DNA from: Candidatus Moraniibacteriota bacterium
GTDB taxonomy: Bacteria; Patescibacteriota; Minisyncoccia; Moranbacterales; UBA11712
Direction of reading: 5' to 3'
Assembly (NCBI GenBank): GCA_026396255.1
Contig: JAPLXD010000006.1
Location: forward strand, 1 to 58,341
Length of the DNA: 58,341 nt
Of this stretch, positions 542 to 50,041 are shown in pieces (the first letter of the stretch is position 1; every line of letters begins with the position of its first letter). The position numbers were made by a program, and so were the translations under genes. The notes beneath the pieces are model-generated. The model saw only the letters and a list, made by a program, of their open reading frames with translations. It made no database searches and was not told the origin of the DNA.

Positions 542-1984
542 TTAGATTTCACGATTTTGACTTTCACGAAACTCCCCACGCACCAATTCCGACGCGTTAT
601 GATGCGGGGCAATGCCGACGGGGATTTTTTTATTGGAGTGAAAAATGACTTTCTTTTGGGTGCGGGTGTGGGCGAGGTATTTTCCCATCCAAGGTTCGAC
701 CTTTCCCTTTCTCGCTGGCGCTCGAAATTCCTCAAGGTCGAACCTTTTGTCAACTAGAACTTCAACGACTTTGCCGATATATTTTTTGTTATTTTCCAGC
801 GCGGTTTTGGAGAGAATGTCCGTAAGCATTTTATCGCGTCTTTCTTTTTCTTTCTTGGAAACATTGTCTTTCATTTTCCAGGCAAGGGTTTGCGGGCGGG
901 GGGAGTATTGGGCGATATAGGCCATATCAAATTTCATCTCGCGAAGAAGCTTGGCCGTGTTTTCAAACTGTTTTTTCGTTTCGCCCGGAAAACCGACGAT
1001 GATATCGGTGGAGATACAAGGTTCAACCTTAGCTGTACAGCTAAGGTTGAACCTTTGAAAAGATCCACGGATTTTTTTGATTAGTCTTTTATAATGTTCA
1101 ATTGAATATTTGCGGTTCATCTTGCGAAGAATTTCGTTGTCTCCAGATTGAGCGGGCAGGGAGATATATTCACAGATTTTTTTGCTTTTGGCGATTATTT
1201 CAATCAGATCGTCAGACATATCTTTCGGGTGCGAGGTGAGAAAAGAGAGCCAGAATTTTCCGGGGATTTTTTCGATGAGGCGGAGAAGTTTTGGAAAATT
1301 TATTTTTTTTTCGCTCCCTCGCCTTGATAAGGAGAGGGTTGGGGTGAGGTTTTTATAGCTGTTCACGTTTTGTCCAAGCAATATAATTTCTTTGCATCCC
1401 TTTTTCACCAAGCTTTTTACTTCTTTCAGGATGTCATCAGCGGGGCGGGAATATTCGCGACCTCTCGCAAAGGGAACGACGCAATAGGCGCAGAAGTTAT
1501 TGCAGCCGGTCATGATTGGTATATATGCTGTGTATGAGTTTGTATATTTGAGTGTTATGTCTAGATAATCAAAGCACTCTCCCTTTACTAAAGGGAGAGT
1601 CGAAGAGAGATTTTTTCTATTGAATTGCTTATTCAAAATCCCCCTTAGTCCCCCTTTAAGAAAGGGGGAGACCGCTTGTGGGAAACTCTTAATTTCGCAA
1701 AACAGATCTACTTTTCCTTTGAGCCTTCGCTGGACGTCTTTTCTATGGGAGAGGCAGCCGGTCAAGACAATTTTTTTATCCAGATATTTTTTCTTTATAT
1801 TATTGATCTGTCCATAAACGCGGTCTTCGGCGGATTGGCGGACGCCGCAAGTGACGAATACGATTAAATTAGCCTCGTCAATTGAAGAGGCTAATTTTAA
1901 TTTATATTTTTCGAGATAAGTGGCGATTCTTTCGGCGTCAGACTGGTTCATTTGACAACCGAAGACTTTGACGAAATATTTCAT
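542..1984 (-). CDS. miaB: MiaB-family tRNA methylthiotransferase (radical SAM), carrying several in-frame inserts
   Basis: N-terminal UPF0004 block VFGCQMNQSDAE..VTCGVRQSAEDR, radical-SAM CNNFCAYCVVP, and a TRAM-like C-terminus. 480 aa. Confidence 0.85.
   Translation of the reverse strand: MKYFVKVFGCQMNQSDAERIATYLEKYKLKLASSIDEANLIVFVTCGVRQSAEDRVYGQINNIKKKYLDKKIVLTGCLSHRKDVQRRLKGKVDLFCEIKSFPQAVSPFLKGGLRGILNKQFNRKNLSSTLPLVKGECFDYLDITLKYTNSYTAYIPIMTGCNNFCAYCVVPFARGREYSRPADDILKEVKSLVKKGCKEIILLGQNVNSYKNLTPTLSLSRRGSEKKINFPKLLRLIEKIPGKFWLSFLTSHPKDMSDDLIEIIAKSKKICEYISLPAQSGDNEILRKMNRKYSIEHYKRLIKKIRGSFQRFNLSCTAKVEPCISTDIIVGFPGETKKQFENTAKLLREMKFDMAYIAQYSPRPQTLAWKMKDNVSKKEKERRDKMLTDILSKTALENNKKYIGKVVEVLVDKRFDLEEFRAPARKGKVEPWMGKYLAHTRTQKKVIFHSNKKIPVGIAPHHNASELVRGEFRESQNREI
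691..746. repeat. 56-bp element with inverted termini AAGGTTCGACCTT/AAGGTCGAACCTT (copy 1, inside miaB)
   Basis: The ends match the copy at 49976-50031 (19 and 20 nt identical) around a 17-nt divergent core. Translated in miaB as FDLEEFRAPARKGKVEPW. Confidence 0.8.
1018..1055. repeat. perfect 38-bp palindrome inside miaB
   Basis: AAGGTTCAACCTTAGCTGT/ACAGCTAAGGTTGAACCTT. Both strands encode FNLSCTAKVEP. Confidence 0.9.
1316..1338. repeat. short interrupted hairpin inside miaB
   Basis: CCCTC-G-CCTT-GAT-AAGG-A-GAGGG, lying in the LSLSRRGSE insert. Confidence 0.5.
1576..1600. repeat. 25-bp palindrome inside miaB
   Basis: ACTCTCCCTTTA-C-TAAAGGGAGAGT. Translated as STLPLVKGE. Confidence 0.8.
1635..1670. 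repeat. C5T3/A3G5 hairpin element inside miaB (antisense to the gene)
   Basis: AAAATCCCCCTTAGTCCCCCTTTAAGAAAGGGGGAG is 33/36 identical to uvrA 50481-50516. Confidence 0.85.
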
Positions 1985-3780
1985 TTTTTATCCTCAATTT
2001 CTTTCTGGATCTTTTCCAAAAACTTCTCAACCTTTATTGCGCCGAGATCGCCTTTTTCGCGGTCGCGAACGGCGACGGATTTGGCTTTCATTTCTTTCTC
2101 GCCGATGATGAGCATATAATTCACTTTCTGGTTCTGGGCGGTGCGGATTCTTTTTCCGAGGGATTCGCCGGTTTTGTTCATCGCGACACGAATATTTTTT
2201 TCTTGGAGTTTTTTCAAAATTTCTTTTCCGAATTTTTCAAACTTTTCCGAAACGGGAATGACTTCAACTTGAACAGGGGAGAGCCAAAGCGGGAAATGGC
2301 CGGCGGTTTGTTCAACTAAAAAGGCGAAAAATCGGTCGAATGATCCCATAATCGCCTTATGGATAATAACCGGCCTTTCTTTCTTTCCTTTTTCGTTTGT
2401 GAACTCGAGATTAAATCGTTCAGGCATATAGAAATCCATTTGAACAGTTGCGATTGAATCTTCTTTTCCGTGGACATTTTTGATTTGAACGTCAATTTTC
2501 GGTCCATAGAAAGCTGCTTCGCCGGCAACTTCTTCGAATTTTACTCCCGATTTTTTCAGGGCTGCGCGGGCAATTCGTGCCGATTCCTCCCAGAGCTTTC
2601 TGTTTTTTATGTCACCATATTTTTCCTTATCATTGAAATCGGGGAGTGATAGTCGAAACCAATAGCCTGTAATGTTGAAATCTTCGTAAACTTTTTTGAA
2701 TAAGCTTAAAACTTTTTCAAGCTCGCTCTGGCTTTGTTCATGCGAGCAATAAATATGAGAGTCATTTTGGGAAAAGCAGCGTGCCCGAATAAGTCCGGTG
2801 AGGACGCCCGATCTTTCAAAGCGATGCAGGAGACTGAAATCAGAATAGCGGACTGGCAAATCGCGATAGCTTTTCGAATCATTGCGAAACATAATGTGAT
2901 GATGGGGGCAATTCATTGGTTTCAAATAATATCTTTCTCCCTCAATATCAATTGGGTTATACATATCATCCTTGTAGTGTGCCAAGTGGCCGGATTTTTT
3001 GTAAAGATTTTCATGCGCGAGAACGGGCGTGTATACAAAATCATAGCCGTTTTGTTTTTCCAATTCGTACATATAATCCTCGAGCTTTTTCCGAATATAA
3101 GCGCCGTTGGGAAGCCAAAGTGGCAATCCTTTTCCCACTTCATCCGAAATCATAAATAGTTTCAGATCTTTCCCGAGTTTTCGATGATCTCTTTTTTCCG
3201 CTTCGGCCATCATGGCAAGATATTGCCGGAGTTCTTTGTCGGTTGCGAAAGCTACGCCATAGATGCGCTGGAGCATCTTGTTTTTTTCGTCGCCCTTCCA
3301 GTAGGCGCCGGAAATCTTGGTGAGCTTGAAAGCCTTCGGGCTTATTTCTCCGGTCGAATCGATGTGAGGACCAGCGCAAAGATCGACAAAATTGCCGGTT
3401 CGATAAATCGAAACAGTTTTTCCGCCAGAGGCGGATCCGCCTTTGGCGGATGCTCTACTACTTTCCTCTTTTGCGATATCTTTGATCAATTCGACCTTCA
3501 GCGGCTGCGCGGCTTTTTTGAAATCTTCCAAAGCTTCGGCAATCGGCAGATTGGCTTTTTCAAATTTGAAATTGGCCTTGATGATGCTCTGCATTTTTTC
3601 TTCGAGGATCGCGAGATCTTCAGGAATCAGTGTACGCGGGAGGTCAAAGTCATAATAGAATCCGTTTTCGATGGCCGGTCCGATGCCAAAGCGGGCGTCG
3701 GGGAACATTTCAAAAACGGCTGCGGCCAGGACGTGGGAGAGGGAGTGCCGAAGAAGCTCTGTTTTTGGTTGTTTTTGCAT
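1981..3780 (-). CDS. thrS: threonyl-tRNA synthetase, short form without the N-terminal TGS domain
   Basis: 599 aa. Starts at the SAD-like block LLRHSLSHVLAAA, with class II core (YLKPMNCPHH, FSLLHRFERSG) and an anticodon-binding C-terminus. Its stop overlaps the miaB start by 4 nt (ATGA). Confidence 0.93.
   Translation of the reverse strand: MQKQPKTELLRHSLSHVLAAAVFEMFPDARFGIGPAIENGFYYDFDLPRTLIPEDLAILEEKMQSIIKANFKFEKANLPIAEALEDFKKAAQPLKVELIKDIAKEESSRASAKGGSASGGKTVSIYRTGNFVDLCAGPHIDSTGEISPKAFKLTKISGAYWKGDEKNKMLQRIYGVAFATDKELRQYLAMMAEAEKRDHRKLGKDLKLFMISDEVGKGLPLWLPNGAYIRKKLEDYMYELEKQNGYDFVYTPVLAHENLYKKSGHLAHYKDDMYNPIDIEGERYYLKPMNCPHHHIMFRNDSKSYRDLPVRYSDFSLLHRFERSGVLTGLIRARCFSQNDSHIYCSHEQSQSELEKVLSLFKKVYEDFNITGYWFRLSLPDFNDKEKYGDIKNRKLWEESARIARAALKKSGVKFEEVAGEAAFYGPKIDVQIKNVHGKEDSIATVQMDFYMPERFNLEFTNEKGKKERPVIIHKAIMGSFDRFFAFLVEQTAGHFPLWLSPVQVEVIPVSEKFEKFGKEILKKLQEKNIRVAMNKTGESLGKRIRTAQNQKVNYMLIIGEKEMKAKSVAVRDREKGDLGAIKVEKFLEKIQKEIEDKK
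3421..3450. repeat. 30-bp near-perfect palindrome in frame in thrS
   Basis: TCCGCCAGAGGCGGATCCGCCTTTGGCGGA, encoding part of SAKGGSASGG. A second copy lies at 13741-13770. Confidence 0.85.
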
Positions 3781-5884: not shown

Positions 5885-5953
5885 CCCCCACACCAATTTT
5901 CGTCACTATTTATTTGAATTCCTATATATTACAAATAGAATTGGTGTAGGGGG
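5885..5953. repeat. CCCC[AG]CACCAATT inverted-repeat element (copy 1)
   Basis: CCCCCACACCAATT ... AATTGGTGTAGGGGG with a ~40-nt AT-rich loop. It abuts the rplY promoter -35. Confidence 0.75.
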
Positions 5954-9201: not shown

Positions 9202-10479
9202 ATGAAAGGTTATATTTCGAAAATAACAATATATTTTTGTTTGCTTGTTTTGTTTTTGGCGTCCGATGTATCTTTGGCTGCCCAGAATGATGCCCAGCAG
9301 CAGGATTTGAAAATGAAAATAAATATTCTGCGGAACCAGATCCAGGAATATCAAAAAGAAATTGATGTCAAAAATAACCAAGCAGAAACTCTTCAGGGCG
9401 ATATCGACGCTATCGAAAAAGACATTGCAAAAATAAAGCTTGAAATGCAGGAGACTCAGTTGGTGATCCAAGGCCTTGATCTTGAGATCGCGGACAAAGA
9501 AGCGGGCATAGCCGCGATGCAGAAAGAGGTGGAGGCCAAAAAGAAAGTCCTCGCGCAATTTATGCAGGAATTGTATGAAAACGGCAATGCTACGTCCGTG
9601 GAATTGGCCCTGGGAAACAATACTTTTTCAGACTACTTTTTTCAGGCGGACAGCCTCGAATCATTTGAGGAGAGGACGAGGGAGATATATGACCGGTTCG
9701 TTTTTCTTCGTGAAGGTATCCAGAAAGAAAAGGATGATCTACTCTCTCAAAAAGAAGAACAGATGAATCTCAGAGCGATGCAAAACGACCAGCAAAATAC
9801 TTTGGATTCGCAAGAGCAGGCAAAAAATTCTCTTTTGGGCAAAACAAAGAATGACAAGCAGGCGCTTTCGGATCAGATGGGAAAATTGCAAGATCAGCTG
9901 AACGCTTTGCAGGCGCTCGGTGAGCCGATCAATATTGATGAAGCAATCAGCGCCGCCAAATATGCATCCGGTTTCACGCATGTTGCGCCGGAATTTTTGC
10001 TCGGCGTCTTGCGCGTCGAATCGGGACTTGGAACGAATGTCGGGGGAGGGAGATATAAAACTGACATGAATCCGGCCCAGTGGGACACTTTCAAAAAAAT
10101 TTGCGGTGAACTCGGAGTTGATCCGAACAGCGTGCCGGTGTCGCGCCGGGCTTGCTACAATTCAAATTCGAAGGACGGATGCGGGGGATGGGGAGGAGCG
10201 ATGGGGCCGGGACAATTCATGCCGACCACCTGGCTCGGATACAAAAGCAAGGTGGAAAAACTCACAGGGAATAGTCCGGCGAACCCGTGGGATCTCAAGG
10301 ACTCCCTTGTCGCGATGGGTCTCAAGCTGGTGGCGGTGAACGGCGTGACGGCGGGCGACCGGTCGGCTTGGGCGAAAGCGGCGGCGATGTATCTCGCGGG
10401 CGGCAACTGGGAAAACTATTCGTGGTATTCGGATCGGGTGTTGTCTTATGCCGACGGATTCAAAAAAATAATGAAATAA
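9202..10479 (+). CDS. secreted coiled-coil protein with C-terminal SLT_2-type lytic transglycosylase domain
   Basis: Signal/anchor sequence, a ~200-aa Q/E/K-rich coiled coil, then ESGLG...GAMGPGQFMPTTW. Confidence 0.75.
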   Translation: MKGYISKITIYFCLLVLFLASDVSLAAQNDAQQQDLKMKINILRNQIQEYQKEIDVKNNQAETLQGDIDAIEKDIAKIKLEMQETQLVIQGLDLEIADKEAGIAAMQKEVEAKKKVLAQFMQELYENGNATSVELALGNNTFSDYFFQADSLESFEERTREIYDRFVFLREGIQKEKDDLLSQKEEQMNLRAMQNDQQNTLDSQEQAKNSLLGKTKNDKQALSDQMGKLQDQLNALQALGEPINIDEAISAAKYASGFTHVAPEFLLGVLRVESGLGTNVGGGRYKTDMNPAQWDTFKKICGELGVDPNSVPVSRRACYNSNSKDGCGGWGGAMGPGQFMPTTWLGYKSKVEKLTGNSPANPWDLKDSLVAMGLKLVAVNGVTAGDRSAWAKAAAMYLAGGNWENYSWYSDRVLSYADGFKKIMK

Positions 10480-10480
10480 A

Positions 10481-10558
10481 TCCCCGCACTAAATTTTAGC
10501 AAAACTATTTTATTATAATGGTCATAATTGCCTTCGGGTATTGAATTTAGTGCGGAGA
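10481..10558. repeat. CCCCGCAC-type inverted-repeat element (copy 2)
   Basis: TCCCCGCACTAAATT ... AATTTAGTGCGGA, starting 2 nt after the stop codon. Confidence 0.7.
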
Positions 10559-10600
10559 TAAATTTGTCAAGTCTTTTTGGAAAAATATTCCTTCGCATCA

Positions 10601-10710: not shown

Positions 10711-10721
10711 CTGTCTTTCTC

Positions 10722-10753
10722 TACGAATTACGAATCTGTACGAATATACGAAT
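10722..10753 (+). repeat. four TACGAAT heptamers
   Basis: TACGAAT TACGAAT ctg TACGAAT a TACGAAT. An inverted counterpart lies at 23868-23898. Confidence 0.8.
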
Positions 10754-10805
10754 ATTATAAAACGCCTTTGAGGCGTTACTGAAGAATAAATTATTTCGAG
10801 TCAGG

Positions 10806-13797: not shown

Positions 13798-14805
13798 GTG
13801 TTTATCAAAAAAATTGGAATTGATCTTGGGACGGCCAATACTTTGGTATTTCTGCCGGGTGAAGGAATTGTTGTCAATGAGCCGTCGGTTGTGGCAATTT
13901 CACTCGTGGACAACAAGATTATGGCGGTCGGCAACGAAGCCAAAGAGATGCTTGGCCGCACCCCGGAAGCAATCACGGCCATGAGGCCACTAAAAGACGG
14001 TGTGATTGCGGATTATCGGATCACGGAAGCGATGCTTCGCTATTTTATCAACAAGGTGGCGGGCGGTTTTCGGCTGTTCCGTCCCGAGGTGATGGTTTCC
14101 ATTCCGGCCGGTGTCACTTCAACGGAACGGCGGGCCGTTGTCGACGCAACCGTGAAGGCGGGGGCGAAGACCGCCTATGTTGTCAAAGAGCCGATCCTGG
14201 CGGCGATTGGGGCGGGTATTCCGATCAACAGTGCAGCGGGGAATATGATTGTTGATATTGGCGGCGGGACCAGCGAAGTGGCGATTATCTCTTTGGGGGG
14301 AGTCGTGGCGGCGCACAGCGCGCGAGTTGGCGGAAACAAGATTGACCAAGCGATTGCCGATTTCATCAAAAAGAAACACGGGCTTGCCATCGGGGAACGG
14401 ACGGCGGAAGAAATCAAGATCACAATCGGCAGCGCGATTCCGCAGATGAAGGACGAATATATGGAAGTGCGCGGACGCGATCTCATCGCGGGCTTGCCGA
14501 AAACGATCCGGGTTTCGGCCAACGAAATCACGGAAGCGATCCAGGATGAGTTGCGCGAAATCATCAATGCGATCAAAAAGGTTTTGCAGGAAACTCCGCC
14601 GGAGCTCGCCGCTGATGTGATCGACAAAGGGATGATCCTTTCGGGCGGCGGCGCTTTGCTTCGCCATCTTGACCAGCTGATCTCGAAGACTACAGGTGTG
14701 CCGTGCTATGTCGCGGATGATCCTCTTTTCTGCGTGGTGAAGGGAACGGGAATCGCGCTCGAGAATTTGGATATGTACAAAAGAACGATAATGCTGACAA
14801 AATAA
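13798..14805 (+). CDS. mreB: rod-shape actin homologue MreB (paralogue 1)
   Basis: IGIDLGTANTLV, DIGGGTSEVAIISLGG and GGGALL. GTG start. Confidence 0.92.
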   Translation: MFIKKIGIDLGTANTLVFLPGEGIVVNEPSVVAISLVDNKIMAVGNEAKEMLGRTPEAITAMRPLKDGVIADYRITEAMLRYFINKVAGGFRLFRPEVMVSIPAGVTSTERRAVVDATVKAGAKTAYVVKEPILAAIGAGIPINSAAGNMIVDIGGGTSEVAIISLGGVVAAHSARVGGNKIDQAIADFIKKKHGLAIGERTAEEIKITIGSAIPQMKDEYMEVRGRDLIAGLPKTIRVSANEITEAIQDELREIINAIKKVLQETPPELAADVIDKGMILSGGGALLRHLDQLISKTTGVPCYVADDPLFCVVKGTGIALENLDMYKRTIMLTK

Positions 14806-14882
14806 TTCACAAAACATATAACATGTAACACAAAACACAAGATTATTTTTCAAAATGTTACATGTTACATGCTTCGTGTTAT

Positions 14883-22564: not shown

Positions 22565-22687
22565 TAGGTACTAGGAACAGGAAAATAAATATAAAAATGG
22601 CTTCAAATTCACCTATCGTTGAAATGCTTTTTTAAGTTTGTTTAGCTCTTGTGTTTTGTGTTGCGTGTTACATGATTTCGTGAAATT

Positions 22688-23740
22688 ATGCTTTCAAGAA
22701 TTTTTGGAAGATTTTCAAAGGATATCGGGATTGACCTGGGGACGGCCAATACTCTTGTGTATGTCGCCGGACGAGGAATTGTGATCAATGAGCCATCGGT
22801 CGTGGCCGTCAACCAGAAAACCGGGCAAATTCTGGCCATCGGTGTGGAGGCCAAAAAAATGGTCGGCAAAACTCCCGCTCATATTGTCGCGACCCGGCCG
22901 CTCGTGGACGGAGTCATTTCGGACTTCGAAGTGACGGAGCAGATGCTTCGCTATTTCATTGAAAAAGTCCACAAAGACAGTTTTGCTCTGATGCCGCGGC
23001 CACAAGTGGTCATCGGAATTCCTTCAGGCGTGACGGAAGTGGAAAAGCGGGCGGTAGTGGACGCGGCGATGAGCGCCGGCGCCCGGCGGGCGTACCTTGT
23101 TGATGAGCCGATGGCGGCCGCGATCGGAGCGCGTCTCCCGATCCAGGAAGCGTCCGGGAATATGATCGTTGATATCGGCGGAGGGACGACGGAAATCGCC
23201 GTGATTTCTCTTGGCGGGGTGGTCGTTTGCCGGAGTTTGCGTATTGCCGGGGATGAAATGAATGAAGACATCATCCGCTATGCCCGCGATGAATTCAACC
23301 TTCTCCTGGGACTGAAGACCGCCGAAGACATCAAAATCGGGATCGGAAGCGCCTATGAGCTCGATGAAGTTTTGGAAATGCCGATGCGCGGACGCGATCT
23401 GGTGACGGGTCTGCCGAAAGAAGTGATCGTGAATGATTCACAGATCCGGGAAGCCATTTTCCGTTCCATAAAAATAATCGTCAACAACATCAAATCGACG
23501 GTCGAAGAAACTCCGCCGGAACTTCTTTCCGACATTATGCAAAGAGGCATCATTCTGGCGGGCGGGGGCAGCTTGATCCGGGGGCTCGAAAAATTGATCG
23601 CCGAGCAGACCGATATCCCCACGCGGGTGATGGACGATCCCTTGACGGCGGTGGCGCGGGGAACGGGAATCATCCTGGAACATCTCGATGAGCTGAAAAA
23701 CGTTTTGGCCGAAACGCAGTATGACAAAGTTTCTTTTTAA
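22688..23740 (+). CDS. mreB: rod-shape actin homologue MreB (paralogue 2, heads mreBCD-mrdA)
   Basis: IGIDLGTANTLVYV, DIGGGTTEIAVISLGG and GGGSLI. Confidence 0.92.
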   Translation: MLSRIFGRFSKDIGIDLGTANTLVYVAGRGIVINEPSVVAVNQKTGQILAIGVEAKKMVGKTPAHIVATRPLVDGVISDFEVTEQMLRYFIEKVHKDSFALMPRPQVVIGIPSGVTEVEKRAVVDAAMSAGARRAYLVDEPMAAAIGARLPIQEASGNMIVDIGGGTTEIAVISLGGVVVCRSLRIAGDEMNEDIIRYARDEFNLLLGLKTAEDIKIGIGSAYELDEVLEMPMRGRDLVTGLPKEVIVNDSQIREAIFRSIKIIVNNIKSTVEETPPELLSDIMQRGIILAGGGSLIRGLEKLIAEQTDIPTRVMDDPLTAVARGTGIILEHLDELKNVLAETQYDKVSF

Positions 23741-23857: not shown

Positions 23858-23867
23858 TAGAATAAAT

Positions 23868-23898
23868 TTCGTATATTCGTAAAGTTTCGTAGTTCGTA
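23868..23898 (-). repeat. four TACGAA(A/T) units, inverted counterpart of 10722-10753
   Basis: The plus strand reads TTCGTA t ATTCGTA aag TTTCGTA g TTCGTA, ending 5 nt before the mreC start. Confidence 0.75.
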
Positions 23899-23902
23899 GA
23901 GA

Positions 23903-24703
23903 ATGCCCATGTTTTCCCGCAAAAACCTAAAATATCTTTCAATAACAGGCGTATTGCTGATCGTCATCTTTGCCAGTCTTCGCTCTGACAACAATCCGTT
24001 GAAGGGAGCCATTTTGACTGTTTCCAGTCCGTTTCTCAAAACTTTCCGAATTTTTTCCGGGGGAGTGTCGGGTTTTTTTCAATTTATGGGATCGATCGGA
24101 GATCTCAAAAGTGAAAATGAAAAATTGGTCGGGGAAAACCAAAGCTTGCTTGCCCAAAACAACCGGCTCAAGGATGCGGAGAAAGAAAATCAAACTTTGC
24201 GGCAGCAGCTGGATCTTGCTCCCAGAAAAAATTTTGACCTTGAGGCCAGTTTTGTCATCGCCCAAGACCCGCAAGGGCTTGGCAATTATTTTCTCATTGA
24301 CAAAGGAGAAAATTCCGGGATCAAAACGGGAATGGCAGCCATAGTTTCAAACGGAATTTTGATCGGACAGGTCACTGAATCATATTCGAGCTCGGCGAAA
24401 GTCACACTTATCACCGATCCCTCGAGTGCCGTCAACGCCGAGGTGCAAAGCTCCGGGGCGAAGGGAATTGTGAATGGAGAATACGGCTTGGGACTCAAAA
24501 TGGGCATGATCTCGCAAACGGATGTTTTGAGCGAAGGCGACACGGTGATTACATCAGGTCTTGGCGGGAAAATTCCGCGAGGACTAACAGTCGGAAAGAT
24601 CGGCCAGGTCGGACAATCGCCCGACAAACTCTTTCAGGCGGCCTCGGTTGTTCCGGCCATCGATGTGTCGGACTTGAGAATGGTATTTATCATAAAGAAA
24701 TGA
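23903..24703 (+). CDS. mreC: rod shape-determining protein MreC
   Basis: N-terminal TM helix, a coiled coil (ENEKLVGENQSLLAQNNRLKDAEKENQTLRQQL), and a beta-rich C-domain. Confidence 0.85.
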   Translation: MPMFSRKNLKYLSITGVLLIVIFASLRSDNNPLKGAILTVSSPFLKTFRIFSGGVSGFFQFMGSIGDLKSENEKLVGENQSLLAQNNRLKDAEKENQTLRQQLDLAPRKNFDLEASFVIAQDPQGLGNYFLIDKGENSGIKTGMAAIVSNGILIGQVTESYSSSAKVTLITDPSSAVNAEVQSSGAKGIVNGEYGLGLKMGMISQTDVLSEGDTVITSGLGGKIPRGLTVGKIGQVGQSPDKLFQAASVVPAIDVSDLRMVFIIKK

Positions 24704-28339: not shown

Positions 28340-28376
28340 CAACCCTGCCCTTCGCGAAAGGCAGGGTTGTTTTTTT
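28340..28376 (+). terminator. intrinsic terminator after greA
   Basis: CAACCCTGCC-N10-GGCAGGGTTG followed by TTTTTTT. Confidence 0.8.
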
Positions 28377-28426: not shown

Positions 28427-29902
28427 ATGCTTGACGAAATAAAGGAAATAAAACTGAAAAAACTGGAAAATCTGCGAAAAGCGGGTCTTGATCCGTATCC
28501 GGAAAAAACCAGCCGGACGATGGTGAACAAAGAAGCGTTGGAAAAATTTGATGAATTGCAGAGCAAAGAAATAATCTTGGTTGGAAGAGTGAAGTCTCTC
28601 CGTCCGATGGGCGGGTCGGCTTTTGCCCACATTGAGAATGAATCAGGGAAAATCCAGATTTTTTTGAGCAAAAAAAACATTGATCCGGAAAAATATAAGC
28701 TTTTTGTCGATTCGATCGAGCTTGGCGATTTTGTCGAGGTCAAGGGGAAATTATTCAAGACCAAAACGGAAGAAATCACCCTTGAAGTGTCGGATTGGAA
28801 AATATTGAGCAAAAGTCTGGCACCCGTGCCGACGGAACATTTTGGGGTGAAAGATACGGAAGAACTTCTGCGCCGGCGCTATCTGGATCTCATGATGAAT
28901 TCCGAAACGCGCGAGCTTTTCCGCAAGAAAAACATTTTTTGGCAAACAGCCCGAACTTTTCTCGCTAAAAAAGGCTTTTTGGAAGTGCAGACTCCCGTTC
29001 TTGAAAATATTCCCGGCGGAGCCGAAGCGGAGCCGTTCGTCACGCATCACAACGCGCTTGATCGCGACTATTTCATGCGCATTTCGCTGGAATTGCCGCT
29101 CAAAAGGCTGCTGGTCGGCGGATACGAAAGAGTCTTCGAGATCGGCCGGGTTTTTCGCAACGAGGGCATTGACAGAGAGCATTTGCAGGAATATGACACG
29201 CTCGAATATTATGAAGCCTATGCGGATCTGAAAAAGGGGATGAAGCTGGTTGAAAAATTGTTCAAGGAAATTGTGAGGAATATCTTGGAGATCGAATCTC
29301 CAAGGGGAGATTCGATCTCCCTTGCAACGGAATACGAGGGAAACAAAATCAATTGGGGAGAAAAATGGGAAACAAAAGACTATTTCAAGCTTCTCAAGCA
29401 AGAGACGGGAATCGATCTCGATAAAGAAATTTCTGTCGCCGATCTCCAGAAGAAAGCGGACGAGTTGGGGATCAAATATGAAAAAAACTATGGCAAGGGG
29501 CGGATGATCGATACGATATACAAAAAAACCGTGCGGCCGAAATTGATCCAACCTTGTTTTTTGGTCGGCCATCCGGTCGAAGTATCGCCGCTGGCCAAAA
29601 AAGATCCCAAAGACCCCCGAAAAGTTTTGCGCCTTCAGGTAATTGCCTGCGCCTCGGAGCTTGGAAACGGTTTTGCGGAGCTGAACGACCCGGTTGACCA
29701 GCGCGCCAGATTTTCCGACCAAATGAAACTTCGCGCCGAAGGGGACACAGAAGCGCAAATGCTCGATGAAGATTTTGTCGAAGCGCTTGAATATGGCATG
29801 CCTCCAGCGTTTGGTTTCGGCTTTTCGGAAAGATTGTTTGCGCTTTTGATGAACAAATCGGTGCGAGAAACAGTCATCTTCCCGCCGATGAAAGAGAAAT
29901 AA
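28427..29902 (+). CDS. lysS: lysyl-tRNA synthetase, class II
   Basis: OB-fold N-domain, RVFRNEGIDREHLQEYDTLEYYEAY, and GFGFSERL. Confidence 0.95.
   Translation: MLDEIKEIKLKKLENLRKAGLDPYPEKTSRTMVNKEALEKFDELQSKEIILVGRVKSLRPMGGSAFAHIENESGKIQIFLSKKNIDPEKYKLFVDSIELGDFVEVKGKLFKTKTEEITLEVSDWKILSKSLAPVPTEHFGVKDTEELLRRRYLDLMMNSETRELFRKKNIFWQTARTFLAKKGFLEVQTPVLENIPGGAEAEPFVTHHNALDRDYFMRISLELPLKRLLVGGYERVFEIGRVFRNEGIDREHLQEYDTLEYYEAYADLKKGMKLVEKLFKEIVRNILEIESPRGDSISLATEYEGNKINWGEKWETKDYFKLLKQETGIDLDKEISVADLQKKADELGIKYEKNYGKGRMIDTIYKKTVRPKLIQPCFLVGHPVEVSPLAKKDPKDPRKVLRLQVIACASELGNGFAELNDPVDQRARFSDQMKLRAEGDTEAQMLDEDFVEALEYGMPPAFGFGFSERLFALLMNKSVRETVIFPPMKEK
29287..29320. repeat. twin-palindrome element in frame in lysS
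   Basis: GGAGATCGAATCTCC-aagg-GGAGATTCGATCTCC. Translated as EIESPRGDSIS. Confidence 0.9.
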
Positions 29903-31422: not shown

Positions 31423-32614
31423 GAAAATCAATCTTTCACCAATAAAAGAAATGGAACTCCGGGCATCGCGCATTCCCGGAGTTGTTTCGCTCGCCCAAGG
31501 CGTGCCGTCTTTTGACACGCCCGAGCCGATCAAGCGGGCGGCCATCGAGGCAATCGAGAAGGGAAAAGTGGCCAAATATTCACTCTCACCCGGCCTTCTG
31601 GAGTTACGCGAGGTGATCGCGCACAATCTTGAAAAAGAAAACAAGTTTTATGACTTTGAAGAAGAAGTTATCGTGACGGCCGGGTCGATCGAAGCGATCA
31701 CGGCGACGATGCTGGCAATTCTTTCTCCGGGAGATGAAGTTTTGATTCCCGATCCGACATATACATCCTATCAGCCGGCTATCAAGGTGGCGGGTGGGGT
31801 GCCGGTCTTTGTCCCGCTGGATGAAAAGAAGCACTGGGCGTTTGATATTGCGGAATTGGAAAAAAGAATCACTCCAAAAACGAAAGCCCTGCTTTTTTGC
31901 AATCCGAACAATCCGACGGGGACGATTTTCACGCGCAATCAGCTTCACGCGGTGGCGCAGCTCGCGATCAAGCACAATTTCTATATTCTGAGCGATGAAG
32001 TTTACAAAGATTTTGTTTTTGAGGAAAATGGAGGTTCGACCTCCACGGGGAGGTCGAACCTCCAACGTTTGTACTCCCTCGCCCAGATGCGCGGGATTCG
32101 GGACAGATTGATCTATATCTTCTCTTTTTCCAAAGCCTACGCGATGACGGGCTGGCGGATTGCGTATCTTGCAACTCATCACGATCTCGCGAAGAAGATC
32201 CTCGGCGTGCACGACGCGCTGGTCACGTGCGCTCCCGTAGTCTCACAGTATGCAGCTCTTGCGGCTCTCGAAATGGCGGACGAGGAACTGGCGAAATATC
32301 ACGCGATATATAAAAACAGGCGGGATCTGATCTGCCGGCGGCTCGATAAGCTGAAAAATATATTTGAATATCAAAAACCGGACAGTGCCTATTTCGTTTT
32401 TCCGCGCATCAAAGAAGATATTTTGCAAAAAATCACTCCAAGTGGCGGTTCAAAGGAATTTGCGATAGAATTGCTGGAGAAGGCCAAAGTGGCGACGGTT
32501 CCCGGATCAGCCTTCGGTCCGGTCGGGGAGAATCATATCCGGATGTGTTTTGGGCGCAGTGAAGAGGATATCAACTTGGCGTTTGATCGGATGGAAAAAT
32601 TTTTCTCAAAATAA
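31415..32614 (+). CDS. class I/II PLP-dependent aminotransferase (aspartate-aminotransferase-like)
   Basis: NPNNPTG and SFSKAYAMTGWRIAY (PLP lysine). Overlaps the serS stop by 8 nt. Confidence 0.88.
   Translation: MDKKINLSPIKEMELRASRIPGVVSLAQGVPSFDTPEPIKRAAIEAIEKGKVAKYSLSPGLLELREVIAHNLEKENKFYDFEEEVIVTAGSIEAITATMLAILSPGDEVLIPDPTYTSYQPAIKVAGGVPVFVPLDEKKHWAFDIAELEKRITPKTKALLFCNPNNPTGTIFTRNQLHAVAQLAIKHNFYILSDEVYKDFVFEENGGSTSTGRSNLQRLYSLAQMRGIRDRLIYIFSFSKAYAMTGWRIAYLATHHDLAKKILGVHDALVTCAPVVSQYAALAALEMADEELAKYHAIYKNRRDLICRRLDKLKNIFEYQKPDSAYFVFPRIKEDILQKITPSGGSKEFAIELLEKAKVATVPGSAFGPVGENHIRMCFGRSEEDINLAFDRMEKFFSK
32030..32063. repeat. twin-palindrome element in frame in the aminotransferase gene
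   Basis: GGAGGTTCGACCTCC-acgg-GGAGGTCGAACCTCC. Translated as GGSTSTGRSNLQ. Confidence 0.9.
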
Positions 32615-36055: not shown

Positions 36056-36173
36056 AGATTTTTGTTTATTTTTTATTTATCTCAAGAGTGCTTACGCCCA
36101 CATTATACAACAACCAAGAAAAGTTATCCACAAGATACTATTGCACTAGTTTTTGTGGTATAATTTCAGTACA

Positions 36174-36253
36174 CCCCCACACCAATTCTAATTATGAATC
36201 AGATTTTTTCAATTATTCAACGAAGAAGATGATAACTGGAATTGGTGTGGGGG
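36174..36253. repeat. CCCCCACACCAATTC inverted-repeat element (copy 4, perfect 15-bp arms)
   Basis: CCCCCACACCAATTC-N50-GAATTGGTGTGGGGG. An extended -10-like TGGTATAAT at 36156-36164 lies just upstream. Confidence 0.8.
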
Positions 36254-36332
36254 TAAAAGACAAAAAGAAAATCCGGAAAAAGCTGAAGCGTATTCAAAGC
36301 GCCGGTTTTGTTTGAGTTAAAAAAAATTAAAA

Positions 36333-41032: not shown

Positions 41033-43564
41033 ATGGATGCTTATAGTTTAAATTTAATATTATACCCTCTGGCCGGGCTGGCCGCGATTGTCTGTTTTGC
41101 CTCGGGCGCTCTTTTGGTATTCAAAAGTTTCATGGGTTTTCGCGGTCTGGTCACGCGGTCGCTCAATATGGATCTCGACGTGGTGAAAGTGAGCCGGCCG
41201 ATGAAGCGGGAAGCGCAAGGCGAACAGCAGCAACAGCCCAAATCGGAAAAAGAATTGATCTCGGTGATGGAGCATCTTTTCGCGAGTCTCGGGAACATCA
41301 AAGAAAAATCAAACATTTGGCATCGAATTATATATGGAGACGCGGTCGTAGCGCTCGAAATGGCCAATCCCGCCGACAATGACGAAATTTCCTTCTACGT
41401 CGGGGCGCCGAAAAAATTCATCAACATTGTCGAGCGGCAGATTCACAGCTTTTATCCCAAGGCCTCGATTGAACGGGTGAAAGACTACAATATTTTTTCT
41501 CCCGGCAGTTTCACAGCGGCTTCAAGCCTCACTCTCAAGGATAAGCATCATTTTCCGATCCGGACATATCAGACACTGGAAGCCGATCCTCTCAACAACA
41601 TCACGAACGTGCTTGGAAAGTTCGACGAGAAAAAGGAAGGGGCGGCCATCCAGCTTCTCATGAAACCGGCGCGGAGCGGCTGGCGGCAAAAAGGGAAGCA
41701 AGTCGCCCACAAAATGCAGCAGGGCCGGCAACTTTCGGATGTCAAAAGGGATACGATCGTGCGCCAGGTCGGCCGCGGACTGTTGAGCCTTTTTCATCAG
41801 AAAAAAGACAAACAGGAAGATATTTTGAAGCAAAACAAAGATGTCATCCAACTTACACCGGAAGAGCAGGAGGTGGTGAAAAAAATCGAAGGCAAAGCCG
41901 GAAAATCCGGTTTCAGCGTGAATATCCGTCTGGTGGCTTCGGCGCTCACTCAGGAGCGCTCGGAAGTGATTCTTTCCGAGCTCGAAAATGGCTTTATACA
42001 ATATGAAAATCCGGGACTAAACAGCTTCAAGGTTTTGCGCGAAGACAAGCGGCGTCCGAAGAATATCGCTTTTGATTTCATCTTCCGCAACTTTCGGAGC
42101 GACCAAAGTTTTGTTCTGTCTTCAGAGGAAATTGCCAGCGTTTTTCATTTTCCGCTGTTCTCGACCGAAACGCCTAAGATCGCCTGGCTCAAGGCCCGCA
42201 CGGCCGCCCCGCCTTCAAACATTTCGAAAGATGGCATCACGCTCGGCTTCAACGACTATCGCGGAGTGGAAACGGTGATTCGGCACGCAGAGGACGATCG
42301 ACGGCGCCACTTCTATGTCGTCGGACAAACCGGAACCGGAAAATCAACGATGATGGAAGAAATGGTGAAACAGGACATCAAAAACGGAAAAGGCGTGTGC
42401 GTTATCGATCCCCACGGAGAGTTTGTTGATCATGTGCTTGAATGTGTTCCGAAAGAACGGGCGGAGGACGTGATCTATTTCGATCCGGCGGACATGGAGC
42501 GGCCGTATGGGCTCAATATGCTTGAATTTGACCAAAACAAGCCGGAGCAAAAAACTTTTGTCATCAATGAAATGATCAATATCTTTGACAAGCTCTATGA
42601 TCTGCGCCAGACGGGCGGCCCGATGTTTGAACAATATATGCGCAACGCGGCCCTGCTCGTGATGGAACACCCGGATTCCGGTTCGACCTTGATGGAGATT
42701 CCGCGAGTCCTGGCCGATGAAGAATTTCGGCATTTGAAACTGTCGCATTGCACCAATCCGGTCGTCAAAAATTTCTGGGAAAAAGAAGCGGAAAAGGCGG
42801 GCGGGGAAGCGGCTCTCGCCAATATGGTCCCGTATATCACTTCGAAACTCACCCAGTTTATTTCGAACGATATGATGCGGCCGATCATCGCTCAGGAGAA
42901 ATCGACAATCAACTTTCGCCAGGCGATGGACAACCAGCAAATTATTCTAGTGAACCTTTCAAAGGGAAAGATTGGCGAAATCAACGCCAATCTCCTGGGA
43001 ATGATCATCGTTGGAAAAATATTAATCTCGGCACTTTCGCGGGTGGATATTTCAGAAAGCGAGCGCAAAGATTTTTATCTCTATATCGATGAATTTCAAA
43101 ACTTCACGACCGATTCGATCGCCCAGATTCTTTCGGAAGCACGAAAATATCGGCTGGCTCTAGTCATTGCTCATCAATTCATCGCCCAACTCAAAGAAGA
43201 AATTTCCAAGGCGGTTTTTGGAAACGTGGGATCGATTTGCTCATTTCGGGTGGGGGCGGAAGACGCGGAATTTCTGCAAAAGCAGTTTGAGCCGGTATTC
43301 GATGCGAATGATCTCATGAACGTGGACAATCACAACTGTTTCATGAAACTTTTGATCGCGAGCCAGGTCGCTTCGCCCTTCAATATGAAAACCTATCCGC
43401 CGACGGCCGGCTCGAAAGAGATCGCGGAAGCCATCAAGGAGCTTTCCAAATTGAAGTACGGGCGCAATCGTGATATAGTGAATGAAGAGATCTTGAAAAA
43501 ATCAAGTTTTGTTTCCGCTCCCGCTTCGGCTGACGCTTTTGATATGGGAGAAAAACCGATGTAA
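41033..43564 (+). CDS. membrane-anchored FtsK/HerA-superfamily ATPase, TraD/VirD4 (coupling-protein)-like
   Basis: N-terminal TM helix, Walker A VVGQTGTGKST, IDPHGEF, Walker B LYIDEFQNF, and ARKYRLALVIAHQFIAQL (TraG-D_C-like). Confidence 0.75.
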   Translation: MDAYSLNLILYPLAGLAAIVCFASGALLVFKSFMGFRGLVTRSLNMDLDVVKVSRPMKREAQGEQQQQPKSEKELISVMEHLFASLGNIKEKSNIWHRIIYGDAVVALEMANPADNDEISFYVGAPKKFINIVERQIHSFYPKASIERVKDYNIFSPGSFTAASSLTLKDKHHFPIRTYQTLEADPLNNITNVLGKFDEKKEGAAIQLLMKPARSGWRQKGKQVAHKMQQGRQLSDVKRDTIVRQVGRGLLSLFHQKKDKQEDILKQNKDVIQLTPEEQEVVKKIEGKAGKSGFSVNIRLVASALTQERSEVILSELENGFIQYENPGLNSFKVLREDKRRPKNIAFDFIFRNFRSDQSFVLSSEEIASVFHFPLFSTETPKIAWLKARTAAPPSNISKDGITLGFNDYRGVETVIRHAEDDRRRHFYVVGQTGTGKSTMMEEMVKQDIKNGKGVCVIDPHGEFVDHVLECVPKERAEDVIYFDPADMERPYGLNMLEFDQNKPEQKTFVINEMINIFDKLYDLRQTGGPMFEQYMRNAALLVMEHPDSGSTLMEIPRVLADEEFRHLKLSHCTNPVVKNFWEKEAEKAGGEAALANMVPYITSKLTQFISNDMMRPIIAQEKSTINFRQAMDNQQIILVNLSKGKIGEINANLLGMIIVGKILISALSRVDISESERKDFYLYIDEFQNFTTDSIAQILSEARKYRLALVIAHQFIAQLKEEISKAVFGNVGSICSFRVGAEDAEFLQKQFEPVFDANDLMNVDNHNCFMKLLIASQVASPFNMKTYPPTAGSKEIAEAIKELSKLKYGRNRDIVNEEILKKSSFVSAPASADAFDMGEKPM

Positions 43565-44358: not shown

Positions 44359-45564
44359 TTATTTCAGTCTCCCAATTATCTTATTTTTCTCACTATATCC
44401 AATTTTCATCTTGGACGCAAGCGTTTGCATAGTGGCAATTGTTTGGTCATATGTCGGGCGATCGACGGGGTAGGGGATGAAATCTTTTCCGCCGTGGGCG
44501 AAGGAATAACGGGCCGGATCTTCATAGGAAGCTTTCGCGCCGTAAATAACTTCCGCTGTCAGCGCCAAAGCTCTGATGGTCTTTGGCCCGACGCCTTTCA
44601 AAGATAAAAGCTGTTCATAATTTTTCGGCTTGACTACATTCACTTCGTATAATATTTTTTCCAAATACTTGCTTTTGGTGAAATCCTCCGTGATGACGGG
44701 CAACACCTTGAAATCGCGGTCATGCAGGTGTATTTTGGTGAGTTCTTGATTCTCGTTTCCAACCGAGATCACTTCGCTTTGAGCTGTTGAGTGGTCGCGC
44801 AGAATGGAGATCGGATCTCCATCGGGGAGATCCGATCTCCGAGGAGTCGCGTATTTGCTCAATAATGCTAGATCTTTCATGAGAGTATTATAGCTTCCTT
44901 GAACGAGCTCTGTGCTGATTTTTTGGGTGTTTTCGCTTTCTCTGGCGGTCATATTGAGCCCGGTGTGCTGGCCGTCCGAAATAATCCCGCTGTGCGGTTC
45001 AATCACTAGGTTCTTTACTTCGTCCGAGAACCAGTGATAGCGTCGCGCCGTCACCTCTTTTTCGTTCATGCCTTGTTGAACGACGGCCCACGTGCCGTTG
45101 CGTGAGAAAAAGAAGCAGTGATGATAAATCTGGAACCCGTCCTGGACGAGGGAAGAATCGACTTTCGCCGCCATCCGGGAATTGTATTCGAGCGAATTTA
45201 TTTTTTCCTGCGAGAGTTCGGCTCGCGCGCCGAAGAGTGAAATTTGCTCCGGAGTTTTGAGCGACGCTTTGCCTTTCCCGCCACAAATATATATTCCCAA
45301 ATCTCTTTCCTCGCCGCGGATAGCCTCTTTCAAAGCCGCGGTTAAAATAGTGATGAGTCCCGACGCGTTCCAGTCAAAAGCGAGCACCGTTCCGAGCGCC
45401 TGAAACCAGACCGGATCGGCGATCCGTTTCACAAACTCATCCGGCCCATATTCGGCAATGATGACCCGTGACATCTCCCGTCCCAGTTTCACCATCCGTT
45501 CGAACAGCCATTTGGGGCACTTGCCATAGTCAAGAGTGAAGGTGGCAATTCCGCGCTTGAACAT
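44359..45564 (-). CDS. DUF763-family protein with helix-hairpin-helix-like C-terminal motif
   Basis: N-terminus GKCPKWLFERMVKLG...DPVWFQALGTVLAFDWNASG is typical of DUF763 as I recall it. LLSLKGVGPKTIRALAL is HhH-like. Confidence 0.7.
   Translation of the reverse strand: MFKRGIATFTLDYGKCPKWLFERMVKLGREMSRVIIAEYGPDEFVKRIADPVWFQALGTVLAFDWNASGLITILTAALKEAIRGEERDLGIYICGGKGKASLKTPEQISLFGARAELSQEKINSLEYNSRMAAKVDSSLVQDGFQIYHHCFFFSRNGTWAVVQQGMNEKEVTARRYHWFSDEVKNLVIEPHSGIISDGQHTGLNMTARESENTQKISTELVQGSYNTLMKDLALLSKYATPRRSDLPDGDPISILRDHSTAQSEVISVGNENQELTKIHLHDRDFKVLPVITEDFTKSKYLEKILYEVNVVKPKNYEQLLSLKGVGPKTIRALALTAEVIYGAKASYEDPARYSFAHGGKDFIPYPVDRPTYDQTIATMQTLASKMKIGYSEKNKIIGRLK
44816..44850. repeat. twin-palindrome element in frame in the DUF763 gene
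   Basis: GGAGATCGGATCTCC-atcgg-GGAGATCCGATCTCC. Translated on the minus strand as RRSDLPDGDPIS. Confidence 0.9.
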
Positions 45565-49344: not shown

Positions 49345-49416
49345 ATGGAAAAATTCGAAAAAGCAGCGGTGATTCGAGATGAAATTGTGCAATTGAGGAA
49401 AGTGCAGATGGGGTAA
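49345..49416 (+). pseudogene. relic of a uvrB 3' end (UVR-domain tail)
   Basis: MEKFEKAAVIRDEIVQLRKVQMG* compares with the uvrB tail MEFEKAAVIRDEIIQLRKLQMK* (47617-47685). That is 19/22 aa identical, with many synonymous nucleotide differences. Confidence 0.65.
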
Positions 49417-49730: not shown

Positions 49731-49838
49731 AATTTTCCCAGAGACTTGTTCTCTGGTGGGGCATTCCTGGTTGGGATGCCTCTTTTTTTATAACAACTGA
49801 AATTGATTTATTAACTCAATAGTATTATATTGAAGAAA

Positions 49839-49920
49839 CCCCCGCACCGAAATAGGTCGGTGTGTATAAGTGCCAATTTGGGGTAAGTTTTTGTATTTGC
49901 GAAATAAATTTGGTGCGGGG
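49839..49920. repeat. CCCCGCACC inverted-repeat element (copy 5)
   Basis: CCCCGCACCGAAAT ... AATTTGGTGCGGGG followed by CAAGC. TTGATT-N17-TATATT (49803-49831) lies directly upstream. Confidence 0.7.
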
Positions 49921-49975
49921 CAAGCCTTAAATGGGGCATTTTTGTGTTAGGTAAAGAATCATTCAGGGAAAATCA

Positions 49976-50031
49976 AAGGTTCGACCTTTCCCTTGTCGGC
50001 TGTCACCTCCAATTCCTCAAGGTCGAACCTT
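49976..50031. repeat. 56-bp element with inverted termini (copy 2), 10 nt upstream of the uvrA ATG
   Basis: Same ends and same length as 691-746, with a different 17-nt core. Confidence 0.8.
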
Positions 50032-50041
50032 GAAGAAATCT

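Follow-up and report, generated by a model that had tools for sequence, protein, structure and literature searches.

Hairpins in the window

The 58,341-nt contig JAPLXD010000006.1 of a Candidatus Moraniibacteriota bacterium (assembly GCA_026396255.1), hereafter the window, carries two copies of a 56-bp hairpin element that are identical over their 19-nt and 20-nt ends and differ in the middle. Copy 1 (691–746) lies within miaB (542–1984, minus strand; assigned from a PDB match), and copy 2 (49976–50031) ends 10 nt 5′ of the ATG (50042) of uvrA (50042–53020, plus strand). On the plus strand, each copy is built as AAGGTTCGACCTT-TCCCTT-(16-nt core)-AATTCCTC-AAGGTCGAACCTT, where the outer 13 nt form perfect inverted repeats and the cores are TCTCGCTGGCGCTCGA (710–725) and GTCGGCTGTCACCTCC (49995–50010), respectively. 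These sequences and coordinates, the perfect inverted termini, the translation of copy 1 within miaB, and the distance of copy 2 from the uvrA start all agree with the original prediction. Its count of 7 matches among 17 core positions was also reproduced on recounting; because the last of these positions is part of the conserved flank, the variable core proper has 16 nt. With up to two mismatches allowed, the 13-mer occurs 12 times in the window versus 1.6 expected, a number not reached in any of 100 shuffles, and its recurrence is not due to chance. Both copies were found exactly, with no difference, in independent Logan contigs of several freshwater metagenome runs, which means that the observation is real and not an assembly artefact.

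The purine-rich ‘top’ strand of copy 1 is the minus strand, which is also the sense strand of miaB. With a trailing G at position 690, this copy forms a 57-nt unit (690–746), which scored 79 bits with covariance model R1. Its outer arms, AAGGTTCGACCTT (691–703, the palindrome AAGGT-TCG-ACCTT) and AAGGTCGAACCTT (734–746), pair with each other and enclose two conserved internal-loop motifs on the minus strand, AAGGGA (704–709) and GAGGAATT (726–733), between which lies a variable core of type A (TCGAGCGCCAGCGAGA on the top strand, 710–725, minus) that folds into a small hairpin with tandem G.A mismatches. The copy is in frame and encodes ...VDK-RFDLEEFRAPARKGKVEPW-MGKY.... Copy 2 (minus, 74 bits with R1) is intergenic and consists of arms at 49976–49988 and 50019–50031, TCCCTT at 49989–49994, a type B core (GGAGGTGACAGCCGAC on the top strand, 49995–50010, minus), and AATTCCTC at 50011–50018. 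A terminator-like site (49758–49782) and a promoter-like site (49803–49831) precede it, and copy 2 is probably located in the 5′ untranslated region (UTR) of uvrA, with its pyrimidine strand co-oriented with this gene.

A blind search for perfect hairpins (stem of at least 11 bp, loop of at most 40 nt) retrieved 15 in the window, compared with approximately 0.1 in shuffles. In 8 of the 15, including both 56-bp copies, each arm is itself a 5-3-5 or 6-3-6 palindrome, with the arm types AAGGT-TCG-ACCTT, AAGGT-TCA-ACCTT, GGAGGT-TCG-ACCTCC, GGAGAT-TCG-ATCTCC, GGAGAT-CGG-ATCTCC, and AAAGT-TCA-ACTTT. The six shorter relatives consist only of arms plus a small loop, and all of them lie in frame inside housekeeping genes: a perfect 19-bp palindrome in miaB (1018–1055; arms AAGGTTCAACCTT / AAGGTTGAACCTT, encoding RFNLSCTAKVEP), a 36-nt hairpin with a 16-bp stem in a class I aminotransferase gene (32029–32064; GGAGGTTCGACCTCC), one hairpin in the lysyl-tRNA synthetase (LysRS) gene (29287–29320; GGAGATCGAATCTCC / GGAGATTCGATCTCC), one in the gene for a DUF763 protein (44806–44840; two units of GGAGATCGGATCTCC), and two in uvrC (53172–53207, AAAGTTCAACTTTAGG...; 53812–53848, TGGAGATTCGATCTCC...). 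A rule that lengths are multiples of three does not hold for the bare palindrome. Relative to solved homologous structures, the aminotransferase palindrome is an exact 12-aa insertion (GGSTSTGRSNLQ), and the hairpins in LysRS and at 1018–1055 in MiaB coincide with gaps of 9 and 10 aa, respectively; thus, these hairpins are insertions. In a related strain from the same metagenomes, 40 nt replaces the 73-nt stretch that holds the aminotransferase hairpin.

Distribution and anatomy of the family

The two copies are not an isolated pair, given that hairpins of the same design were found both in the window and elsewhere. A genome search with the pattern AGGTTCGACCT-N6-36-AGGTCGAACCT retrieved the same arms at more than 119 genome loci, nearly all of which belonged to Patescibacteria (the Candidate Phyla Radiation, CPR), including Saccharibacteria, Paceibacterota/Parcubacteria lineages, Moranbacteria, Microgenomates, Doudnabacteria, and Minisyncoccia. 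A few matched loci were labelled Omnitrophota or Anaerolineae, and only one match was obtained from the 2.9 million viral contigs searched. Of the 133 copies among the matches listed, 102 fall within stop-free open frames of 100 aa or longer, with all three frames and either orientation represented; the others are plainly intergenic and split no genes. The copies are therefore inserted into many unrelated genes and spacers, and those surviving in genes keep the frame. Some genomes contain identical copies at more than one locus (e.g., L066/L074/L008/L076, and two in L005 plus L116), and subfamilies sharing the same loop occur in different lineages, which is the behaviour of a dispersed mobile repeat.

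The metagenome-assembled genome (MAG) CAZFIH01 (L029, L032, and L158), labelled ‘uncultured Bdellovibrionales’, contains a thrS-miaB-miaA locus with three long elements within 2 kb, and its MiaB is 68% identical to that of the window. This Moranbacteria-like locus makes the label doubtful, and judging from its sequence the MAG is probably Moranbacteria-like. The Omnitrophota chromosome CP070780.1 (L017, L058, and L072) carries longer self-palindromic arms (ATTGTTCGAGGT-TCG-ACCTCGAACAAT) in tandem or truncated arrangements, indicating that the family reaches beyond Patescibacteria with variants of its own.

The anatomy of the long form was derived from a metagenome scan that returned 35 loci, in which the arms of most copies were fixed by the search patterns and arm variation was seen from MiaB and TsaD orthologs and covariance-model matches. 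On the purine strand, the element runs as a 13-nt arm (a 5-3-5 palindrome, X-TCG-X′), GAGGAATT, an inner hairpin, AAGGRA, the inverted arm, and a trailing G, which is present in 30–31 of the 35–36 long copies counted. The outer stem has 13 bp, with arms AAGGT-TCG-ACCTT / AAGGT-CGA-ACCTT. Only three core lengths were observed, namely 16 nt (22 copies), 19 nt (13 copies), and 22 nt (1 copy), so the unit measures 57, 60, or 63 nt and is always a multiple of three, provided that the trailing G is counted. The cores fall into discrete types, each of which is a small hairpin: type A (TCGAGCGNCAGCGAGA; copy 1 of the window, L152, L154, and L157), type B (GGAGGYNNNAGCCGAC; copy 2, L130, L135, L141, and L149), type C (CCCCGAC-N5-GTCGGGG; L012 and others), GGCGGAT-TY-ATCCGCC, CCGACAGC-TGG-GCTGTCGG, and others besides. 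Types A and B contain tandem G.A/A.G mismatches. The core is therefore a replaceable slot for an inner hairpin, which is why the cores of the window appear swapped: they represent two of several inner hairpins that can fill this slot.

The inner helix covaries. In a 33-copy alignment, seven pairs were changed on both sides, with 74 covarying cells versus 28 after shuffling and none of 500 shuffles as high, although the aligned copies are related by subfamily and the shuffle control thus overstates the significance; controls with slid partners were much lower, and compensatory inner stems are obvious by eye despite the kinship of the copies. The ends that the original prediction describes as conserved are not the same in every subfamily: covariance model R1, run on the fetched loci, retrieved further long copies that had not been chosen by fixed arms and whose arms differ with four-way compensation (AAAGTCCGACTTT / AAAGTCGGACTTT; AAAGCTTGGCTTT / AAAGCCGAGCTTT; AAAGCTAAGCTTT / AAAGCTTAGCTTT). 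The internal-loop motifs GAGGAATT and AAGGRA are unchanged in these copies, and the constraint thus acts on the outer stem, on the self-complementarity of each arm, and on the purine internal loop. Either strand can fold, and as RNA the purine strand is usually the more stable one. Each copy has 3–5 open frames compared with approximately 2.5 in shuffles, an enrichment that falls short of all six. Of the predicted structured RNA with a variable loop, the hairpin with a covarying, variable inner stem-loop stood; the element matched no known RNA family: in the Rfam search, only a tRNA passed the gathering threshold, and only sub-threshold noise at E ≤ 1 was observed around both copies.

Orthologous sites, nesting and host proteins

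MiaB relatives with 61–75% identity were compared at the point between VEVLVD and GHTRTQKK, where several states were observed. The site is empty (VEVLVDADGKGHTRTQKK) in, for example, P0007, P0031, P0045, P0046, P0066, P0068, and P0069; it holds the long element, in some cases partly decayed, in P0006, P0008–P0010, P0014–P0016, P0021, P0025, P0032, P0035, and P0061, and the variant-arm subfamily in P0012 and P0017. Other palindromic families occupy the same point in further relatives, encoding the peptides SPLIPLF..KGG, LDSRFRGNDN, and VRPHSSLAARSD. In the DNA of nine MiaB orthologs, the arms are nearly invariant, and the core is of type A in six, of type C in L012, and of other types in L158 and L159. 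In three TsaD genes (70–73% identical), the element occupies one shared position but has a different core in each. The core thus changes by whole types at the same site in both MiaB and TsaD, as expected from the core switching envisaged in the original prediction. A related strain joins position 49955 to 50042 through only 8 nt and therefore lacks the element before uvrA.

The arms are conserved at the nucleotide level, synonymous positions included. Among conserved residues in four-fold codon boxes of the nine MiaB orthologs, third-position identity is 100% (136/136) in arm codons versus 49% (2138/4323) outside the element, which bears out the claim that conserved ends around a variable core are not the product of simple decay. 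The family is thus constrained at both the nucleotide and the structure level, and it also nests into itself: 9 of the 35 long copies are enclosed, in matching orientation, by a second long copy whose core slot they occupy and which often is older or has different arms. In L131, for instance, the outer arms are AAAGCTTGGCTTT...AAAGCCGAGCTTT and the inner arms are canonical, and further nested examples are L140, L126, and L091. In the MiaB gene of L164, the left half of a canonical element directly precedes a complete variant-arm element that stands alone in L165, and L164 is thus a chimeric state relative to L165. The view of the core as a slot hence gains from the whole second elements found in it, but not in the form of a cassette or attC-type site.

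In the AlphaFold model of the window MiaB, the mean predicted local distance difference test (pLDDT) score is 75, and values fall below 50 exactly over the inserted segments. Residues 417–432, which correspond to the 56-bp element, have pLDDT <50 and lie between two strands of the TRAM domain; this domain is undetected by Pfam in the window MiaB and detected in empty-site relatives. In-gene copies are accordingly predicted from sequence and model to be translated as disordered, tolerated surface loops. None of the window's words was present in RNA runs from the same samples. Regarding orientation, 28 copies have the pyrimidine strand as the sense strand and 15 have the purine strand; relative to GC skew, 30 copies place the purine strand on the C-rich strand, where the skew is negative, and 7 place it on the G-rich strand. 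GC skew is positive throughout the window, and both copies have the pyrimidine strand on the plus strand. The bias may be linked to replication (single-strand transposition) or may reflect selection against purine-rich, Shine-Dalgarno-like, more stable mRNA hairpins; the cases that would separate a replication-linked from a transcription-linked bias are too few and not independent.

Further families of in-frame palindromic inserts occur in miaB (1576–1600 and 1640–1690), uvrA (50483–50563), and thrS (3421–3450). Their sequences include CTCTCCCTTTAGTAAAGGGAGAG, encoding LPLVKGE, and TCCCCCTTTCTTAAAGGGGGA..AAGGGGGATTT, encoding SPFLKGGLRGI; the uvrA insert encodes NPPQSPFKKGGGASSSPLKKEGLGEDF, and TCCGCCAGAGGCGGATCCGCCTTTGGCGGA is located in thrS. 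MiaB segments 113–137 and 214–224 also have pLDDT <50, and relatives (L012 among them) carry yet other palindromic families at the sites of these inserts.

Four intergenic inverted repeats of a common type were also observed upstream of genes (5885–5952, 10474–10565, 36173–36254, and 49838–49925), in which CCCC[CG]CAC..AAAT/AATT ... AATT..GTG[TC]GGGG surrounds 36–60 nt of AT-rich sequence. The last of them sits just upstream of copy 2 in the uvrA leader, and a similar motif, CCCCGCACC, follows the long element in L148; these repeats may represent a second repeat family or a promoter-associated hairpin. A perfect GC-rich palindrome followed by a T-run directly after greA (28340–28369; CAACCCTGCCCTTCGCGAAAGGCAGGGTTG) looks like an ordinary intrinsic terminator and not a family member. 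A 23-codon remnant or mini-ORF (49345–49416; MEKFEKAAVIRDEIVQLRKVQMG*), located after the stop of a small membrane-like open reading frame (ORF), shares 78% DNA identity with the UVR-motif C-terminus of uvrB (47621–47685). Two long-range inverted repeat pairs, each 88% complementary (10717–10758 / 23862–23903 and 14811–14842 / 22647–22678), contain TACGAA-type and ACA/TGT-rich motifs and lie near the mreB paralogs (13798–14805 and 22688–23740) and mreC. Amid housekeeping genes, 41033–43564 encodes an 843-aa protein with HerA/DUF87 and TrwB/VirD4-type coupling-protein domains, predicted to be a type IV secretion or conjugation ATPase.

Probable mobility, rival explanations and known systems

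Taken together, it is probable that both copies are members of a non-autonomous, mobile family of mini-hairpin repeats, resembling REP doublets forming hairpins (REPINs; REP, repetitive extragenic palindrome) and Rickettsia palindromic elements (RPEs), which is widespread in Patescibacteria and translated as a tolerated loop. New copies would preferentially enter a resident copy at its core slot (core or loop) and share its orientation. The nested pair would then be reduced to one element, its arms renewed and its core replaced, either by slippage and collapse between the close direct repeats, which are the arm with GAGGAATT on the left side and AAGGRA with the arm on the right, or by short-patch conversion between copies. 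Core renewal probably proceeds in one of these two ways, either of which would explain together the hot spots, the conservation of arms beyond synonymous saturation, and the switching of cores. By analogy with REPINs, mobilisation may involve single-stranded hairpin or ‘clover’ folds and a trans-acting enzyme, modelled on an HUH/Y1 transposase of the RAYT (REP-associated tyrosine transposase) or IS200 type, which would likely recognise the invariant purine internal loop.

Several observations weigh against a mobile family. No Y1/HUH transposase, integrase, or insertion sequence (IS)-type protein was found among the window ORFs, and a phmmer search with E. coli RayT against six-frame ORFs of the approximately 1.1 Mb of fetched loci yielded one spurious match and no homolog, in a sample too small to exclude one. 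Target-site duplications were absent from all 35 flank pairs, and the flank preferences are weak (Y at -3, A at -1, and G at +1). The nest-and-collapse sequence is drawn from static contig snapshots in which no insertion or excision event is seen, and the arms of most copies are fixed by the search pattern, so arm variation is known from few sources. Strict arm conservation where synonymous sites are saturated is unexpected for neutrally decaying copies, and at orthologous sites it could instead reflect a host-level function.

Such a function would be provided if the hairpin were a structured nucleic-acid module beneficial to the host (RNA in an mRNA or UTR, or DNA) that is bound by a protein or modulates translation, mRNA stability, replication, or repair, and that is kept by purifying selection with dispersal being secondary. 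The identity of arm codons, the compensatory changes preserving the structure of the arms and inner helix, the invariance of the purine internal loop across genomes, both orientation biases (30 vs. 7 for the purine strand on the C-rich strand and 28 vs. 15 for the pyrimidine sense), and the placement of copy 2 in a likely 5′ UTR, 10 nt from a start codon, are all in line with this possibility. However, no one role at the RNA level suits copies that occupy loop positions in dozens of unrelated genes, in either orientation and every frame; orthologs and related strains manage well when the element is missing, nested copies and decayed copies (P0035 and P0021) resemble the behaviour of transposons, and no Rfam family was matched. 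We regard a host module as unlikely. A somewhat different combination, which we consider doubtful, is that a structure-constrained landing pad is kept at the nucleotide level in essential genes across CPR phyla, and that an enzyme recognising the purine loop and the hairpin or clover fold inserts or exchanges hairpin ‘cargo’ in the core slot, which would amount to an undescribed cassette-like mobility or conversion system with possible host-level effects on translation or genome maintenance of these ultrasmall bacteria.

The original prediction had likened the element to recombination or cassette sites, in which, as in attC, the ends would be recombinase half-sites and the core the exchanged segment. 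Inverted conserved ends around a variable centre, a core slot that takes whole elements in one orientation, and core types that differ at orthologous sites are compatible with such sites, but the window contains no tyrosine or serine recombinase, integron integrase, or transposase, the copies occur within ORFs of housekeeping genes that are unrelated to one another and not between promoterless cassettes, no attC R/L box consensus is present in the arms, and the ‘cargo’ is only a 16–22 nt hairpin, which leaves this reading very unlikely. Palindromes could also be made in place by template switching during replication (perfection and growth of quasi-palindromes) without any mobility; perfect stems that often reach into variable flanks, the nested palindromic symmetry, and hairpin-templated correction, which would keep arms complementary, speak for this process. 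The same 13-nt arms, loop motifs, and core types are nevertheless present at non-homologous loci and in different phylum-level lineages, and local template switching cannot be the source of sequence shared between unrelated loci; it is highly improbable as an account of the family. The chance that chimeric hairpin reads or another assembly or sequencing artefact produced perfect hairpins in metagenome-assembled DNA is practically negligible, because independent assemblies of several runs agree exactly, copies keep reading frames, MAGs from many unrelated studies carry them, and nine MiaB genes have them at orthologous positions. Four further candidates were rejected: a tRNA T-arm origin of GGTTCGA (the arm loop has 3–5 nt and not the 7 nt of a T-loop), a DNA-uptake sequence (where an arm stands alone in the window the match is due to chance, and the motif is essentially confined to pairs), a split gene, intron, or bypass (non-ORF copies are all intergenic, and no frame-broken genes were found), and an invertible segment (on inspection, neither core is the reverse complement of the other).

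A mobile hairpin family of this kind bears on the many unexplained short insertions that break domain models in CPR proteins, such as the TRAM domain of MiaB that Pfam fails to detect. Together with its sister families in the window, it would explain part of these insertions as translated selfish hairpins, which is relevant to the annotation, structure prediction, and phylogenetics of CPR genes. The copies could serve as natural markers of strain history and as a map of permissive loops in essential proteins, and the family offers a small, clean model for how hairpin repeats move and renew, while hinting at a candidate enzyme in organisms with almost no characterised mobile-DNA biology.

Among known systems, REPINs are the closest in architecture, and RPEs and intragenic REPs are the closest in lifestyle. 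REPINs are moved by RAYTs, Y1 HUH transposases whose gene is present in the same genome and flanked by repeat copies. The spacer of REPINs is less conserved yet hairpin-forming, with compensatory changes, and two folds, a hairpin and a clover, have been proposed (Bertels & Rainey 2011, PMC3116915). Both kinds of element consist of two inverted, individually palindromic units around such a spacer, which needs to maintain its length and hairpin-forming ability and permits a long hairpin and a clover as alternative folds; both are dispersed, non-autonomous, and long-lived, and cluster by insertion into one another. The present family differs in having 13-nt arms and a unit of 34–63 nt, compared with 20–40 nt for REPs and approximately 100 nt for REPINs; in about three-fourths of its copies being intragenic and in frame, whereas REPs are mainly extragenic; and in its 3-nt length steps and conserved purine internal loop. 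No RAYT turned up in the window or in the approximately 1.1 Mb of loci, a sample too small to exclude one. REP units of 20–40 bp have one end tagged with unpaired GTAG or CGTC (PMC3733652), unlike the 35 aligned copies, in which no such tag was found next to the stems. Intragenic REPs, too, have been found in uvr genes (Di Nocera et al. 2013, PMC3733652).

RPEs (Ogata et al., cited in PMC10969869) are likewise in-frame palindromes in housekeeping genes, including uvr, that are translated and tolerated in loops; their hosts have reduced genomes, and no dedicated transposase is known for them. They are Rickettsia-specific elements of approximately 100–150 bp (RPE-1 to RPE-10), each with a conserved encoded peptide. 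The family described here is set apart from them by its size (34–63 bp) and its hosts (many CPR phyla), and also by being read in all six frames, by its self-palindromic arms, and by its swappable inner hairpin.

IS200/IS605 elements and the palindrome-associated transposable elements (PATEs) derived from them as MITEs (miniature transposable elements with inverted repeats) have small end hairpins that TnpA recognises on one strand, produce no target-site duplication, and use a specific 5′ tetra- or pentanucleotide target. Our family resembles them in having small hairpins at both ends, readable on a single strand, and in the lack of target-site duplication; its orientation bias, of the kind expected for single-strand transposition, and its weak flank preferences are indirect signs at most. 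It is far smaller, and neither a TnpA or TnpB partner nor a conserved tetra- or pentanucleotide target was seen. With attC sites, which are read as a folded single strand, it shares conserved imperfect inverted ends and a variable central structure; it differs in lacking R/L boxes, cassettes, and (in the window) an integrase, and in having copies inside ORFs. Terminal inverted repeats are shared with classical MITEs, but here they come without target-site duplication and at a size below the 70–300 bp of MITEs. Elhai et al. (2008) reportedly described cyanobacterial small dispersed repeats (SDRs), which are very small mobile repeats, and Paquin et al. (2000) and Lang et al. (2014) reportedly described mitochondrial double-hairpin or ‘byp’ elements. 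These too are hairpins of tens of nucleotides that nest in one another and can lie in coding regions; however, their hosts and sequences are different, and byps are bypassed by the ribosome, whereas frame conservation and lengths of 3n argue for translation here. Full-text searches of the literature returned no match for the sequence or for in-frame palindromes in CPR, and the family is apparently undescribed so far. Within small palindromic mobile repeats, the combination of four-way symmetric arms, an invariant purine loop, a swappable core quantised in 3-nt steps, and self-nesting is unusual and appears to be new.

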